Below, in pieces: positions 22,940 through 30,294 of a stretch of 64,000 nucleotides of DNA (position 1 is the first letter of the stretch; each line of letters opens with the position of its first letter). The stretch lies in the IMG/VR virus record IMGVR_UViG_3300020577_002562, positions 1-64,000 of that record; one strand, 5' to 3'. The translations under genes were made by a program, and so were the position numbers. The DNA is from a virus (lineage: Duplodnaviria > Caudoviricetes). A model generated the notes under the pieces. It did no database searches. It was not told the origin of the DNA and saw only the letters and a program-made list of their open reading frames with translations.

Positions 22940-23145
22940 GTACGCAAGATGAGGAGTGCAAATGCTGCGGTTCACGACCTGACGCTAGAAAGAGGTATCT
23001 GGGTGGTATAGATGCATCAGAACGTACGAAGGTTGAAGAGTTCACAAAGTGCCCGTTCTGTTCAAGTCAGAAGTGTTGCATGTGTGACATGGGTAATGAT
23101 GTTCGTTGCACGTCATGTGTCGATGAAGAAGAGGACTACGAGTGA
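22936..23145 (+). CDS. Small Cys-rich protein
   Basis: AAGGAG SD; multiple CxxC. Confidence 0.6.
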   Translation: MSTQDEECKCCGSRPDARKRYLGGIDASERTKVEEFTKCPFCSSQKCCMCDMGNDVRCTSCVDEEEDYE

Positions 23146-23918
23146 AGATCAAAGTCAAGCCGGTGGCCGGTAAGAAAATCAAGACCGCTAAGCCCACTAA
23201 GACCAAGAAGGGGTTTCTACCAGATCGCGAGAAGCTCAGTGCAACCAAGAACAAGGGGCCGTTGGTAGTCAAAGTCACCAAGGGTGAGAAGAAAGCGGAC
23301 ACCACCTCCGGTAAGCGCCGAGTCGACCCACAGTCCGTTAAGGATCTGAAGGGGGCAAGCTACAACCCTCGATACATCAGCGAAGCTCAACTCAAGCGTC
23401 TGAAGATCTCGATGGAAAGCTTCGGCGACTTGAGCGGTATCGTGTTCAATGTAGCGTCAGGTGTGTTGATCAGCGGACATCAGAGGTTGAAGACCCTAAG
23501 CGGGAAGAAGTCTAAGCTGGTCAAGAAGGCAGTTCAAGACAAGCGCGGCACCGTGGCTGAAGGTCAGCTTGTAGTTGTCGAGTCTGACGGTAGCAAGACC
23601 AGAATCCCGTACCGGGAAGTAAACTGGTCAGATCAGCAGACTGAGATTGCCGCTAACATTGCAGCCAATGCCCACGGTGGTGAGTTTGACGACATTAAGC
23701 TGGGCGGTCTGCTGCACAAGTTGCACAAGGGCAAGTTCGACATCGAACTGACTGGTATCAGTGAACTGGACTTTCGCAAGATGGTCATTGACTTCCGAAA
23801 GGGCAAAGGTAGTTCCGTCACGGAAGTTAAACCAGACGACGACACGCCGACCGGGAAGAATGCAGAGTCTGGTTCCAAGTGCAAGTGCCCACGGTGTGGA
23901 TTCAAGTTTCTAGCGTGA
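23142..23918 (+). CDS. ParB/Srx-like N-terminal domain protein with a C-terminal Zn ribbon
   Basis: YNPRYIS...LKISMESFG....IVFN...LISGHQRL; NIAAN..GGEFD; KCPRCGFKF. Confidence 0.85.
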   Translation: MKIKVKPVAGKKIKTAKPTKTKKGFLPDREKLSATKNKGPLVVKVTKGEKKADTTSGKRRVDPQSVKDLKGASYNPRYISEAQLKRLKISMESFGDLSGIVFNVASGVLISGHQRLKTLSGKKSKLVKKAVQDKRGTVAEGQLVVVESDGSKTRIPYREVNWSDQQTEIAANIAANAHGGEFDDIKLGGLLHKLHKGKFDIELTGISELDFRKMVIDFRKGKGSSVTEVKPDDDTPTGKNAESGSKCKCPRCGFKFLA

Positions 23919-24784: not shown

Positions 24785-25093
24785 GTGGTTGCAGACATTG
24801 ACCCGGAGGCTACATTGAGTCCTAGACTAAGAACCACGTTGAACGATCCGCATTGGTTGGCGTTGAATGGACCCAAGTTGGCAAAGCTGCTGCCAGAGAC
24901 TTGGACGCATATAGCCAATCTGAATCCGCTACAGCTAGATTTCAATCTTAAGCTCTTAGGTGTTGATTGGCGCACCGATCAGGAGTTTGCAGAAACCATG
25001 ATGTCGCTGGAGCAACACACGATCCTATTACGATCTGGTATGCTTGTTCGACGGAACCATAGACTGATGGGAGCACAAAATGCCGATGACTGA
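24785..25093 (+). CDS. Hypothetical protein
   Basis: Packed run. Confidence 0.55.
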   Translation: MVADIDPEATLSPRLRTTLNDPHWLALNGPKLAKLLPETWTHIANLNPLQLDFNLKLLGVDWRTDQEFAETMMSLEQHTILLRSGMLVRRNHRLMGAQNADD

Positions 25094-25322
25094 TACCTTG
25101 ATTGCACTGATAGAGCGCGGTCCGCTGTGGGATGGTGATGTGCCGAGCAAGATCGAGCGTGACACTCTAATCAATCAGGGTTTGGCCGTTCGTGTAGTAG
25201 TCAAGGGCAGTGACGGCTACACAGCAGCTACATATAGAGGTCGCGATGCTTACAATCAGCACTATGGGGGCGACACCTTGTCGACCTCGATGTGCGTAAG
25301 ACGGCTGGCTAAGGCACCATGA
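25080..25322 (+). CDS. Small winged-helix-like hypothetical protein
   Basis: GPLWDGDVPSK..RD.L...GLA. Confidence 0.65.
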   Translation: MPMTDTLIALIERGPLWDGDVPSKIERDTLINQGLAVRVVVKGSDGYTAATYRGRDAYNQHYGGDTLSTSMCVRRLAKAP

Positions 25323-25562
25323 GTAGCAAGTACCTGAGTGGACATCAGCAACGATTGAAGACGCATGGGGCTTACTGGGTATGTGCTCACCCATTGCTTA
25401 AGGTTCAAGAGTTGAAACGGGACACTAGATGTCCGACTTGTTGTAGAGCGGTGCGCATAAATCACTCGGAGTGGCTTTATTTATCCTGGAGATACCCACA
25501 ACCAGTACCGGACACACTACCGGAGGATCTTTCACCTTCAGGCATAGTATTGTGAGAACCGT

Positions 25563-25850
25563 ATGACACAACCACTGTCCCAAGAAGCGGCTTTCGCTCT
25601 AGGCGCCGAAGCTATGAAGTCCAAGATCACTGCTTGGCTGATGATGAATGGATACATGACTGTAGCACCCAAAGTGCTGACGTTGGAGAACCCCGCTTTT
25701 TCTATGCCAGAGTCGGTGACTATCGAACCGATCAAGCAAGCAGCAGAAACCCGCAGAGTCAATGTTGCAAGTTGCAACTGCAACGATATGGCCGGGCAGT
25801 CTTTTTTCGAGTGGCGGTGTCCCGTACATGGCTACCAAAGTGACGCATGA
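25563..25850 (+). CDS. Hypothetical protein
   Basis: ATGA overlap with the MTase gene. Confidence 0.55.
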   Translation: MTQPLSQEAAFALGAEAMKSKITAWLMMNGYMTVAPKVLTLENPAFSMPESVTIEPIKQAAETRRVNVASCNCNDMAGQSFFEWRCPVHGYQSDA

Positions 25851-26848
25851 AATACACAGTCTTGAACCTACCAACGATGGAGCGAATCAACGCCAAGCCC
25901 AAGAAAGCCGGCGTTGCCGTTTCTCTGTTCAGCGGAATGGGTGGGGGTAGCATAGGATTGAAGCTGGCTGGCTACGAAGTACGGTACGCTAATGAGTTCA
26001 TCCCGATCGCGCGAAAGACGTATAGAAAGAACGCTCGGGGCACGTATTGTGATGGACGTGACATCCGCAAAGTCAAGCCCAAGGACATTCTGGAAGTTAT
26101 TGGTTGTAAGCCTGGAGAAGTGGACTTGCTTGAAATGTCCCCGCCCTGCAAAGTCTTCAGTGCAGCGCAAGCACGCAACCGAGAGAAGAATGTAGGCCAG
26201 GTTATCAACTACTCGGAGAACGTCAAGCAACGAGTAGACGATCTATTCTTCGAGGGGTGCCGCATTCTCAAGGGTATTCAACCGCGTGCATTCATTGCTG
26301 AGAACGTGAAGGGACTGTTGGCAGAAGCTAACAAGTCCATCTTCAAGGAGGTGTATCGAGCATTGGAGCGATGCGGCTACAGAGTCAAGGCCGCAGTGCT
26401 GAACGGCACAGACTTTGGCGTACCTCAAGCTCGTGAGCGTTTGATCTTCATTGGCATCCGCAAAGACTTAGGGATTGAACCGCAATTTCCCGACATCAGT
26501 GAACACAAACCAGTGTACGTGCAGGATGCACTGCCTCATGTGGCGAAGATCAAGACTGGCCGCAAATTCGTACAGGCGAAGAGTAACTTCATCTCGACGA
26601 TCACGGCAGCCGACTCGGCCATCAGTTTCACGGCCCAGTTTTCAGCAGGAGGCTTCTGTGAGACAGTCGACGGCACCATACGCAAGTTCACTATCAAGGA
26701 ACTCAAGCTGTTAAGTAGTGTACCGCAAGACTTCAAGCTGATCGGAACATTCAAACAACGCTGGGAACGATTAGGTCGAATCCATCTGCCACTGCAAGTC
26801 TACTACTTGGCCTCCACTCTACGAAAGCAACTGAAAGCTGCAACATGA
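25847..26848 (+). CDS. C5-cytosine DNA methyltransferase-family enzyme with motif-X Asn->Arg; candidate DNA carboxymethyltransferase
   Basis: Motif I LFSGMGG, IV SPPC (C101), VI AENVKG, VIII GVPQARER, IX RKFTIKE, X ERLGR(311)IHLP in place of GN. Confidence 0.9.
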   Translation: MKYTVLNLPTMERINAKPKKAGVAVSLFSGMGGGSIGLKLAGYEVRYANEFIPIARKTYRKNARGTYCDGRDIRKVKPKDILEVIGCKPGEVDLLEMSPPCKVFSAAQARNREKNVGQVINYSENVKQRVDDLFFEGCRILKGIQPRAFIAENVKGLLAEANKSIFKEVYRALERCGYRVKAAVLNGTDFGVPQARERLIFIGIRKDLGIEPQFPDISEHKPVYVQDALPHVAKIKTGRKFVQAKSNFISTITAADSAISFTAQFSAGGFCETVDGTIRKFTIKELKLLSSVPQDFKLIGTFKQRWERLGRIHLPLQVYYLASTLRKQLKAAT

Positions 26849-27108
26849 CATTCTTGCCTACTGGATCAACAGATCTGACAGAAGACGATGACATCGATCA
26901 GGTAGATCAACAGTACATGACACCATTGCTCGGAAAGATCGTCCATGATCTGGGTGGCAAATACTTCATCCCTGCTGCGCAGTTGGGAACGAACGCGCTG
27001 TACTCGTTGGAAGTCTCCGAAGATGACACGGGTATAACCATCGTGTCCACCATAGTTGAACCGGGGGACAATGCCACATACGTAGCTCCAAGCCAAACGA
27101 GGAACTGA
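26845..27108 (+). CDS. Small acidic hypothetical protein
   Basis: ATGA overlap with the MTase gene. Confidence 0.6.
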   Translation: MTFLPTGSTDLTEDDDIDQVDQQYMTPLLGKIVHDLGGKYFIPAAQLGTNALYSLEVSEDDTGITIVSTIVEPGDNATYVAPSQTRN

Positions 27109-27109
27109 A

Positions 27110-27862
27110 ATGACTGATGTTCGAGTTGAAGGTTGTAGCACTAGTTCCGCACCCCAAGACCACGTACTGCCTTCTGGTCTTTGGAAGTTCGATGAAGAGG
27201 TCACCAAAGTCTTTGACGATATGCTGGCACGCAGCATACCTGGCTACGAGACAATGCGGTGGGCAACACATCAAGTTGGTGCTCAGTTTCTACAAGGTGA
27301 TTGGTCCACGGTCGTTGACATCGGAGCCTCACGAGGCGAGTCGGTGGACTGGTTCATCCAGAATCATCCGCGTCACAAGTACAAGCTGATCGAAATTTCG
27401 CAGCCCATGCGAGAGACTCTGGAAGCTCGGTACTCGGAGAACCCCGACGTTCGAGTCTGGAACCGTGATCTGCGTGAAGCTGATCAGGTTTTTGACAAGG
27501 TAGATGACTGCTCAATGATCTTGAGTGTGTTGACGTTGATGTTCGTTCCGATTGAGCACCGTCCGGCACTGGTGCGTGCAATGTGGGAGACGCTCAGACC
27601 AGGTGGCGTTCTGATCATGGTTGAGAAGATGTTGGGCGCCACACCGTTGCTGGATGCGAAGCTCAAGGACACGTACTACAAAATGAAGGCTGATAACGGC
27701 TACACGCAAGATGAGATCCTGCGAAAGAAGCTGTCGCTGGAAGGTGTGTTGGTGCCTCTGACCGAAACGTGGAACCGAGACTTGTTGGAGCGGGCCGGCT
27801 TCAACCAGATTGACTACTTCTTCCGATGCCTTCAATTCGGCGGGTTCATCGCTGTAAAGTAA
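27110..27862 (+). CDS. cmoA: CmoA-like carboxy-S-adenosylmethionine synthase
   Basis: WKFDEEVTKVFDDMLARSIPGY, VDIGASRG, LTLMFV, GGVLIMVEK, K.DNGYT..EI.RK..SLEGV, FFRCLQFGGFIAVK all parallel CmoA motifs. Confidence 0.8.
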   Translation: MTDVRVEGCSTSSAPQDHVLPSGLWKFDEEVTKVFDDMLARSIPGYETMRWATHQVGAQFLQGDWSTVVDIGASRGESVDWFIQNHPRHKYKLIEISQPMRETLEARYSENPDVRVWNRDLREADQVFDKVDDCSMILSVLTLMFVPIEHRPALVRAMWETLRPGGVLIMVEKMLGATPLLDAKLKDTYYKMKADNGYTQDEILRKKLSLEGVLVPLTETWNRDLLERAGFNQIDYFFRCLQFGGFIAVK

Positions 27863-27865
27863 TCG

Positions 27866-28288
27866 ATGAAGAAGACCTACAATCCGTACCGTAACTTGCT
27901 GGCTAAGGTGCGGTATCTACTCCATACCGACGCGAAGATGACTGAAGCCCAATTGACTGACCACCAGTGGATGCTTATGGCGAAAGTGGCGGGGTCTCAA
28001 GTGCTTGTCGGTAAGGGTGGGGTGAACACCATGTTCTATCAATTCGGGGACCGCAAGCGCAAAGTGTGCGGCCCTATGGAACTGGTAGAGTTGTTGAAGA
28101 GGTTGAGCAGGCGTCGGTACGTTGCTTACCGAGTGAATGATACCTTAGCTTGGAGTGAGAAGACTGCTTTAGCAGCCGATCCTAAGCCAAAGACAAAGAT
28201 CATCGGCATTCGCGCCGATGGTAAGGAAGTAGTCGTGTATACTGCCACAAAGACGTTGCAGGGGTATCAATGGGCAAAGGTCGAGTGA
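27866..28288 (+). CDS. Hypothetical basic protein
   Basis: Within the modification cluster. Confidence 0.7.
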   Translation: MKKTYNPYRNLLAKVRYLLHTDAKMTEAQLTDHQWMLMAKVAGSQVLVGKGGVNTMFYQFGDRKRKVCGPMELVELLKRLSRRRYVAYRVNDTLAWSEKTALAADPKPKTKIIGIRADGKEVVVYTATKTLQGYQWAKVE

Positions 28289-29160
28289 TTCCCCGAGAAG
28301 CTTTCAAGCAACACGAGAAACTAGCTAAGGCGTTGCATTCTAGATTGCTTGAACTTGTCGCTCCGTTGCCTAAACGAGTTGCTGTGTTGTTGTCTTCAGG
28401 GGTAGATAGTCATGCAGTGCTGTTCGCTTGTTTGGAAGCCAAGAAACAGGTAGCCACGTACACGTTTGGTGTGCGCGGAGTATCATCTAAGGATGTTCGT
28501 GTGGCCGCTCGTACAGCGGACGAATTGAAACTACCTTGGACGTTCATTGAGCTTAATCCGTCGGTAGAAGAATTGCGCTCTTACCTTAGGCTTTTGTACT
28601 CCGACAGTGTGGGCGCCAAGATCCACATTAACAAGAGTTCAGTGGAATGCCTGTGGCCTATGCTTAGAACTCTACCTCATGTTGATGAGAAGTGTGTGGT
28701 TGTTGGTATGGGCGGAGATGTGCCTTACGCCACGACTAGATCCACAAAGAAGCAGGCACTACACTCTTTTGAAGAGCATCTTAAAGCCCGACAAGAATAC
28801 GCAAGAACCGCATCGCGTCGCAAAGATCCGCAGTCAGTTTGTACAGACAACTGGATTGCGGCAAATCGTCGAGGCATGAGAGTAGTGCAGCCGTTAGCAG
28901 ACCCGAGATTTCTAGAACTGCATCGGAGTATGCACCCTATACACGAGGGGTGGAATCCGATACAGAAAGCCCCTTTGCGTCTTGCCTTCTACGATTGGTT
29001 TGCACGATGCCCAGCGTTGATTCATCAGTCCTACAATGCAGGAGACACAGGAATCAGTGATGCCTTCGAGAAGTTGCTGACCCAGTCTTTTGAAGGCAAA
29101 AAATTCAAGTCGGTGCGGGGGCTGTACTCCGCTATAGAGCGAGGAGAAGTCAAACCATGA
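28270..29160 (+). CDS. Asparagine-synthetase-like ATP-dependent amide ligase (synthetase domain only)
   Basis: PP-loop VAVLLSSGVDS, TYTFG, VVVGMGGD, QK.PLR; no N-terminal Cys glutaminase domain. Confidence 0.8.
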   Translation: MGKGRVIPREAFKQHEKLAKALHSRLLELVAPLPKRVAVLLSSGVDSHAVLFACLEAKKQVATYTFGVRGVSSKDVRVAARTADELKLPWTFIELNPSVEELRSYLRLLYSDSVGAKIHINKSSVECLWPMLRTLPHVDEKCVVVGMGGDVPYATTRSTKKQALHSFEEHLKARQEYARTASRRKDPQSVCTDNWIAANRRGMRVVQPLADPRFLELHRSMHPIHEGWNPIQKAPLRLAFYDWFARCPALIHQSYNAGDTGISDAFEKLLTQSFEGKKFKSVRGLYSAIERGEVKP

Positions 29161-29178
29161 AGTGAGAAACTGCGCACA

Positions 29179-29187
29179 CTAATTTCA
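29179..29187 (+). promoter_or_regulatory. Candidate late promoter motif [CG]TAATTT[CG]A
   Basis: Also at 40651, 43576 and 55933, each upstream of a virion, lysis or peptide gene. Confidence 0.5.
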
Positions 29188-29242
29188 GACCAGCAGTACC
29201 GGACAGGTCCTGCACTTCCGCAACAACACTCCTGGAGTTGAC

Positions 29243-29365
<123 letters not shown>

Positions 29366-29388
29366 GCCAGCCACCATTGGCTGATCTG

Positions 29389-29426
29389 AAACAGGCACAG
29401 AAGGCTTTGGCTTTCTGTGCCTGTTT
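29389..29426 (+). terminator. Intrinsic terminator
   Basis: AAACAGGCACAGAAGGC-TTTG-GCTTTCTGTGCCTGTTT. Confidence 0.8.
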
Positions 29427-29530
29427 GCATTTCTGACTCTATACGGTAGTCTTTGGTTGGATTCCCGTGACGACTGGATTCGACTGAGACTGTAAAGTAT
29501 GAGCATCGCAATTTTGGCTGTTCCACAACA

Positions 29531-29872
29531 ATGACTGTTTCTATCAATCGTAGGTTCGATTCGATGGCACACTACGGCAATAGTATGGGAGCCACGTATC
29601 ACGTTCCGTACTGTCAAGATTGGAGTTGGCTGGACTCCTTAATGTGCGACAGTTTCGACTACGCCTTGCTGAATCCGAAACGATTGAGTCTGATGGACTT
29701 TCTATTGGAGTGGGAGAGTCAGCTTCTAGATTTGATAGAACAACGCCATCCACACTCCACGGCTCAGGTTCGTGTAATGGAGCCTAACTGGTTAGAGGCA
29801 ACTATCCAACTGCGTAGCGGTATGAAGGGTTCAATCAAAGCCGGAGCGTACTTGAAATGCCTAAACAAATGA
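29531..29872 (+). CDS. Hypothetical protein
   Basis: Follows the ACTGTAAAGTA motif. Confidence 0.55.
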   Translation: MTVSINRRFDSMAHYGNSMGATYHVPYCQDWSWLDSLMCDSFDYALLNPKRLSLMDFLLEWESQLLDLIEQRHPHSTAQVRVMEPNWLEATIQLRSGMKGSIKAGAYLKCLNK

Positions 29873-30294
29873 CTGCCGAACAGATCCTGACGGCGTGCCC
29901 ACCACGAGTTGCAGTTGGCGCAAAGACAGTGATCATCAAAGATGCGAAGCCCTCTGTCACCAAAGACAAGAGACAGCGTATCGTCTGCAAGATCATCTCG
30001 ACAAATACCCTTGACGGCAACCGCAAACCACCACCTCCAGTCAAGACGCACACGTCAACAGTTGAAGCCCTGGTGCCAGATAAGTACATACGCGACCGCG
30101 ATGTGCCTGTGCGCGTGTCATGTACTTGCGATGATTTCTGGGCCACTTGGGAGGTTGCCTTGTTCAAGCGTGGCGCTGCTAAGATCCAGTTCTCGAACGG
30201 TGAACTGCCAGTAGAAAAGAACCCTCGGATGATCCCTGGGTGCTGTAAGCATCTGTACAAGATGCTGCAACAGATTAGAGGTCGACGTATCTGA
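29857..30294 (+). CDS. SWIM-type Zn-finger protein
   Basis: VSCTCDDF...NP..IPGCCKHL. Confidence 0.8.
   Translation: MPKQMTAEQILTACPPRVAVGAKTVIIKDAKPSVTKDKRQRIVCKIISTNTLDGNRKPPPPVKTHTSTVEALVPDKYIRDRDVPVRVSCTCDDFWATWEVALFKRGAAKIQFSNGELPVEKNPRMIPGCCKHLYKMLQQIRGRRI

Follow-up and report, generated by a model that had tools for sequence, protein, structure and literature searches.

The window, by which we mean the whole 64,000-nt stretch of DNA that was analyzed, spans positions 1 to 64,000 of IMG/VR record IMGVR_UViG_3300020577_002562, an uncultured jumbo-phage contig that is linear, 187,209 bp long and ~75% complete. It carries a gene module that runs, in order, from a ParB-like gene through six small ORFs to a CmoX-type gene, an 87-aa ORF (orf87), a CmoA homologue, a 140-aa ORF (orf140) and a CmoY-like ligase. 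The features to which we refer are the following:

23142–23918, plus strand: ParB-like protein, 258 aa (phrog_620, E = 1.4e-31)
25847–26848, plus strand: predicted CmoX-type DNA cytosine C5-carboxymethyltransferase, 333 aa (Pfam DNA_methylase PF00145 over residues 25–232, E = 4.6e-47; PDB 8YF3, E = 1.8e-48)
26147–26149, plus strand: codon of the catalytic Cys101 (SPPC, motif IV), an invariant column aligned with SpCmoX C98
26777–26779, plus strand: codon CGA of Arg311 in motif X, a predicted binder of the Cx-SAM carboxylate, aligned with SpCmoX R350, HhaI N304 and the HaeIII motif-X Asn
26845–27108, plus strand: orf87, an orphan acidic ORF of 87 aa between CmoX and CmoA (pI 4.05; 14 D+E vs 3 K+R)
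27110–27862, plus strand: CmoA-like carboxy-SAM synthase, 250 aa (1IM8, E = 1.3e-31; 4GEK, E = 2.1e-25)
27866–28288, plus strand: orf140, a conserved accessory protein of 140 aa (phrog_23597) that recurs in CmoX/CmoA/CmoY modules
28270–29160, plus strand: CmoY-like ATP-dependent amide ligase, 296 aa, synthetase domain only (PF00733 Asn_synthase, E = 3.9e-08; phrog_26038)

The orf87 reading frame shares 4 nt with the CmoX stop, and a single nucleotide separates its end from the CmoA start in a translationally coupled arrangement, and the phage-encoded CmoA begins 262 nt downstream of CmoX. The CmoX gene is the single C5-MTase gene of the whole 187-kb record, and a megablast search of phage records with positions 25000–30000 returned no match. 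The window also encodes an SMC-like protein that resembles those of the Lu11/Motura jumbo phage group (24–31% identity).

The first-pass annotation of this DNA had described a C5-MTase with motifs I, IV, VI and VIII intact and a motif X that reads WERLGRIHLP, and translation confirms both the reading and its coordinates. Bases 26762–26797 encode W-E-R-L-G-R-I-H-L-P-L-Q in the frame of the ORF at 25847–26848, which places the CGA codon at residue 311, and motifs I, IV, VI and VIII read FSGMGGGS, SPPC (within EMSPPCK), ENV and QARER. When all PDB chains were searched with phmmer, the top match was 8YF3 chain A, the SpCmoX enzyme encoded by Synechococcus phage S-B43 (Yang et al., Nat Commun, December 2025, PMC12783734), which a profile built from 30 family sequences matches at E = 1.1e-98, with the whole length covered. 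The window protein is 46% identical to gp309 of Pseudomonas phage PaBG and 34–36% identical to SpCmoX. It combines the C5-MTase fold and SPPC motif by which Yang et al. recognize the family, with C101 falling on SpCmoX C98, itself aligned with the C81 nucleophile of HhaI (PMC12783734), and an Arg stands where SpCmoX has R350 and HhaI has N304, so that the Gly-Asn of motif X, through which canonical SAM-dependent C5 DNA methyltransferases contact the methionine moiety of SAM, is lacking, Arg replacing Asn. In an alignment with SpCmoX and the PaBG protein, the SpCmoX residues that contact Cx-SAM (F25, E47, F48 and D69) correspond to F28, E50, F51 and D72 of the window protein, all in invariant columns. 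The two enzymes thus share the fold, the SPPC nucleophile, an ERxGR motif X, the Cx-SAM contacts and phage CmoA and CmoY neighbors. They differ in length (333 aa in the window vs 372 aa, with a shorter target-recognition or variable region between motifs VIII and IX), in the residues after the Arg (HLP in place of VPP) and in gene order, which is CmoX-CmoA-CmoY with orf87 and orf140 added in the window and CmoA-CmoY-CmoX in S-B43. The target motif of the S-B43 enzyme is GC.

We examined the placement of the Arg by three routes, phmmer, MAFFT and the family profile, all of which set R311 on SpCmoX R350. In the phmmer match to 8YF3 chain A, R311 lies on residue 350 in the second aligned stretch, and a weak phmmer stretch to HaeIII matches it to the Asn in GNAV. 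When MAFFT aligned the window protein to its S-B43 and PaBG counterparts, E307, R308, G310 and R311 all fell in invariant columns. The 30-member profile gives full-length alignments to M.HhaI (E = 1.8e-33) and to M.HaeIII (E = 4.8e-44), enzymes that have the fold and catalytic motifs of CmoX but read GN(S/A)V in motif X where the window reads GR, and it places the family Arg on HhaI N304 (counted back from printed alignment residue 319) and on the HaeIII Asn; the earlier assignment of R311 to the motif-X Asn therefore stands. The Arg311 column is invariant among the 30 aligned family members, and ERxGR is present in 79 of the 80 nearest viral relatives (37–53% identity), the exception being a Leu variant, L022 (L numbers denote fetched viral contig loci). 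Asn occupies the same position in 54 of 58 phage C5-MTases examined from a control set, the motif being unreadable by script in the remaining 4. As judged from these alignments, Arg at motif X of CmoX is not a chance feature.

What the Arg might do is suggested by the S-B43 enzyme. In the 1.9 Å crystal structure, Arg350 of SpCmoX replaces M.HhaI Asn304 and directly touches the carboxymethyl group of Cx-SAM; Cx-SAM was the sole cofactor that the wild-type enzyme accepted, SAM not being used, and the R350N mutant had no activity with either (PMC12783734). The alignment to R350 supports the proposal, made from the window sequence, that R311 would bind the Cx-SAM carboxylate. The same annotation had likened the Arg to an engineered carboxymethyltransferase switch, and the likeness to M.MpeI N374K is drawn by the CmoX authors themselves (PMC12783734). 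Because R350N is inactive with SAM and Cx-SAM alike, the Arg is, by analogy, necessary and yet no simple reversible switch, and an R311N mutant of the window enzyme would probably be a dead enzyme. M.MpeI N374K, like CmoX, can use Cx-SAM owing to a basic residue in place of the motif-X Asn, but there it is a Lys engineered into a CpG methyltransferase, whereas the window protein has a naturally occurring Arg and belongs to a distinct clade. The engineered M.MpeI N374K still uses SAM. Our profile alignment to M.MpeI (4DKJ) ended short of motif X, and the equivalence to N374 rests on the literature and on HhaI N304.

The first-pass annotation had further taken motif X as evidence linking the enzyme to the adjacent CmoA, and had raised the prospect that methyltransferases with the GR motif are enriched beside cmoA homologs. 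We ran this enrichment check on the 80 nearest CmoX relatives in viral contigs, taken with their flanks, and on a control set seeded on the Asn-type C5-MTase of Citrobacter phage CfP1 (GNSV), whose flanks were longer than those of the Arg-type set. A match to the CmoA HMM was present in 74/80 Arg-type loci vs 0/59 Asn-type control loci, which bears out both the link and the enrichment; each set is in essence a single clade and the control contains redundancy, and these counts are to be read as an association and not as many independent events. Four of the six Arg-type loci that gave no CmoA match are cut off on one side, and the Leu variant L022 is among the six. In a FastTree phylogeny of 92 sequences rooted on Asn-type methyltransferases, the Arg-type proteins form a single clade (support 0.90), in which the window protein groups with L084, PaBG, L024 and L003 (support 0.99), apart from the Asn-type phage C5-MTases.

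These data bear on whether the window gene could encode an ordinary SAM-dependent 5-methylcytosine methyltransferase that tolerates the Arg, with CmoA serving another use, for instance to deplete SAM or to modify host tRNA. Its catalytic motifs are those of any C5-MTase, and phage cmoA needs no C5-MTase partner, as such a gene lies within 6 kb in only 8 of the 80 closest viral cmoA loci. Against this, the Arg is invariant in the clade and tracks cmoA in the proportions given above, wild-type SpCmoX took Cx-SAM and not SAM, and all of the Cx-SAM contacts named in the CmoX paper are kept, which together leave the ordinary methyltransferase reading only a very slim chance of being right.

The residues that follow Arg311 (26783–26791, within IHLP) set the window protein apart from most of its relatives: V313 and P314, in the context [AS]-V-P-P, occur in ≥90% of the 30 aligned relatives, where the window has H313 and L314, and H313 may lie near the cofactor. 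This VPP-to-HLP change could be read as the mark of a CmoX-family member whose activity has changed or disappeared, a protein that either only binds or uses a further-modified cofactor. His after the Arg is, however, shared by L084 (GRSHVP) and L140 (GRSHLP), both complete modules, and for this reason we regard it as a lineage feature, inherited and kept under selection, and not as decay. The nucleophile, ENV, QxRxR and the cofactor contacts are also all intact, and the gene is translationally coupled in an intact module; we accordingly consider altered or lost activity highly unlikely. Loss of the Arg itself is seen in L022 (L022:1015–1965), whose motif reads WARLGLSVPP; the Glu is missing too, no cmoA lies nearby, and the gene may have reverted or may be decaying.

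The CmoA homologue is supported by full-length homology to proven CmoA proteins. Its top PDB matches, H. influenzae YecO/CmoA (1IM8) and E. coli CmoA (4GEK), both align end to end, and it is 29% identical (E = 2e-25) to the experimentally active SpCmoA. It matches TIGR00740 with E = 8.2e-39 but at 133.7 bits falls below the equivalog cut-off of 193.3, and it scores 90.1 against 285 for NF011995, both models being tuned to bacterial tRNA-pathway CmoA. K207 (27728–27730) occupies the position of E. coli CmoA R199, where phage CmoA proteins show R, K or E, and the neighboring K206 is invariant; we considered whether K207 might disable the window protein and rejected this, as SpCmoA, which is highly active, aligns Glu at that position. 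In the 187-kb record we detected neither a CM_2 chorismate mutase nor CmoB, absences that are not proven in a record ~75% complete; because the record shows no CmoB, the phage CmoA appears to be without a tRNA-pathway partner.

A separate observation concerns the 80 closest viral cmoA loci as a group. In at least 62 of them, the gene upstream encodes a ~530-aa protein with a ParB N-terminal domain and a class-I Rossmann methyltransferase fold (loci L087–L163; for example L134:3964–5556, protein P0004), and in this arrangement, seen at most of the closest viral cmoA genes, cmoA lies ~450 bp downstream. This protein belongs to phrog_5475, bears the motifs DFGAGH and SVLNSVPF, has 657 homologues, many of them in Verrucomicrobiota, and finds CcbJ, GSMT and TylM1 in Foldseek searches at ~1e-6. 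No PF00145 match was found in five whole records of this type. The protein is a candidate for a second type of enzyme, outside the C5-MTases, that uses Cx-SAM; Yang et al. report that they found no candidates of this kind (PMC12783734).

The module of the window is common to PaBG and to five other long phage contigs. PaBG gp310–gp306 represents its closest cultured relative, with a matching set of genes in matching order that are annotated generically as ParB-like, DNA cytosine methylase, tRNA methyltransferase, hypothetical and asparagine synthase. Identities between the window and PaBG are 46% for CmoX, 37% for CmoA, 34% for CmoY and 46% for the ParB-like protein, and the 150-aa hypothetical protein of PaBG is homologous to orf140 (E = 6e-08). 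The window ParB-like protein is 45–49% identical to the ParB-like genes that adjoin CmoX in PaBG, L003, L024, L084 and L140. PaBG differs from the window in that it lacks orf87, has ParB immediately upstream of its CmoX and reads GRSVPP where the window reads GRIHLP. The PaBG genes are absent by name from the main text of the CmoX paper (PMC12783734), and we found no literature report on PaBG DNA modification.

Gene content between and around CmoX and CmoA varies across these loci. The orf87 product gave no Pfam, NCBIfam or PHROG match and has no homologue in any fetched locus; an ORF at the same position in L140 is a chorismate mutase, an identity that we rejected for orf87, which matches no such family. 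Type II chorismate mutases lie between CmoX and CmoA at L140:5656–5922 (PF01817, E = 1.5e-07) and L224:2853–3296, where they would supply prephenate for Cx-SAM synthesis by CmoA. The L140 and L224 modules also include a 2OG-Fe(II) oxygenase, and L003 and L225 a DUF1611 protein. In L140, a 242-kb phage contig, CmoX (L140:3350–5647) reaches 765 aa owing to an intein (Hint + LAGLIDADG) inside the methyltransferase, which precedes Pfam profile position 71 (protein residue 519).

The remaining two genes of the module are the ligase and orf140. The CmoY-like ligase is a PP-loop (SxGxDS) synthetase domain homologous to SpCmoY (29% identity, E = 6e-16) and without a glutaminase domain; its PP-loop reads LSSGVDS, with S42, G44, D46 and S47 invariant, and the CmoY family profile matches the synthetase domain of AsnB (1CT9, E = 3.8e-06). 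Because it is only 29% identical to SpCmoY, the window protein probably falls outside the SpCmoY network cluster. The orf140 family is rare, with only 32 clusters in 5.8 billion, and 10 of 10 members examined sit in a CmoX/CmoA/CmoY module, the order of genes varying. Its AF2 model is confident (pLDDT 90.7), and fold searches gave nothing above noise: the best Foldseek PDB match had E = 0.099, ESM Atlas matches had TM < 0.5, and the best VIA-align match was a Pur-alpha repeat (Z 6.4, residues 4–84). Complex predictions of CmoA and CmoY with orf140 as partner scored 0.41, 0.00 and 0.00 in separate runs against a mark of 0.32, and count neither way on binding. We speculate, with considerable doubt, that the PaBG-type module might make a cytosine hypermodification other than 5-glycylcarboxymethylcytosine, with orf140 (phrog_23597) as a new and indispensable component that might, for instance, bind DNA or deliver the amine.

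In S-B43, CmoA produces Cx-SAM, which CmoX uses to carboxymethylate cytosine at C5 within GC sites, and CmoY, an asparagine-synthetase homologue, ligates glycine onto 5cxmC (PMC12783734). By analogy, the window CmoA would convert SAM and prephenate to carboxy-SAM; Cys101 of CmoX would attack cytosine C6, after which the carboxymethyl group of carboxy-SAM would pass to C5 to give 5-carboxymethylcytosine, with Arg311, in place of the motif-X Asn, pairing with the extra carboxylate of the cofactor. The CmoY-like PP-loop ligase would then adenylate the DNA-borne carboxylate and join an amine to it, glycine in the case of S-B43, and the outcome would be a hypermodified cytosine that shields phage DNA from host nucleases. 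The evidence from the window consists of homology, residue conservation and gene linkage, while the chemistry, the choice of cofactor and the contact between Arg and carboxylate come solely from the S-B43 homologues. We put at roughly 0.88 the probability that the ORF at 25847–26848 belongs to the phage CmoX family and would act like its S-B43 homologues; weighing against this reading are the 34–36% identity to the characterized enzyme, IHLP after the Arg, the CmoA scores below the equivalog cut-off and the failure to find a chorismate mutase in the record.

Yang et al. list 5,615 candidate CmoX proteins (SPPC + R350) in IMG/VR, UniProt and MGnify, with 4,257 CmoA proteins, 2,251 ligases and 1,660 ParB-domain proteins on the same contigs (PMC12783734), and because the record analyzed here is of the IMG/VR type, the window protein may well belong to that set. 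The observation made in the first-pass annotation and its interpretation are right but had already been published (December 2025), and the gene is a further, PaBG-type example of the CmoX system. Since published work tells DNA carboxymethyltransferases apart from methyltransferases by the Asn-to-Arg change, the gene can be annotated with confidence as CmoX and not as a Dcm-like methylase. This assigns a whole jumbo phage group to the 5cxmC hypermodification class. Pseudomonas phage PaBG, which belongs to that group and can be cultured, offers a direct experimental route to the product of the conserved accessory protein and the divergent ligase.
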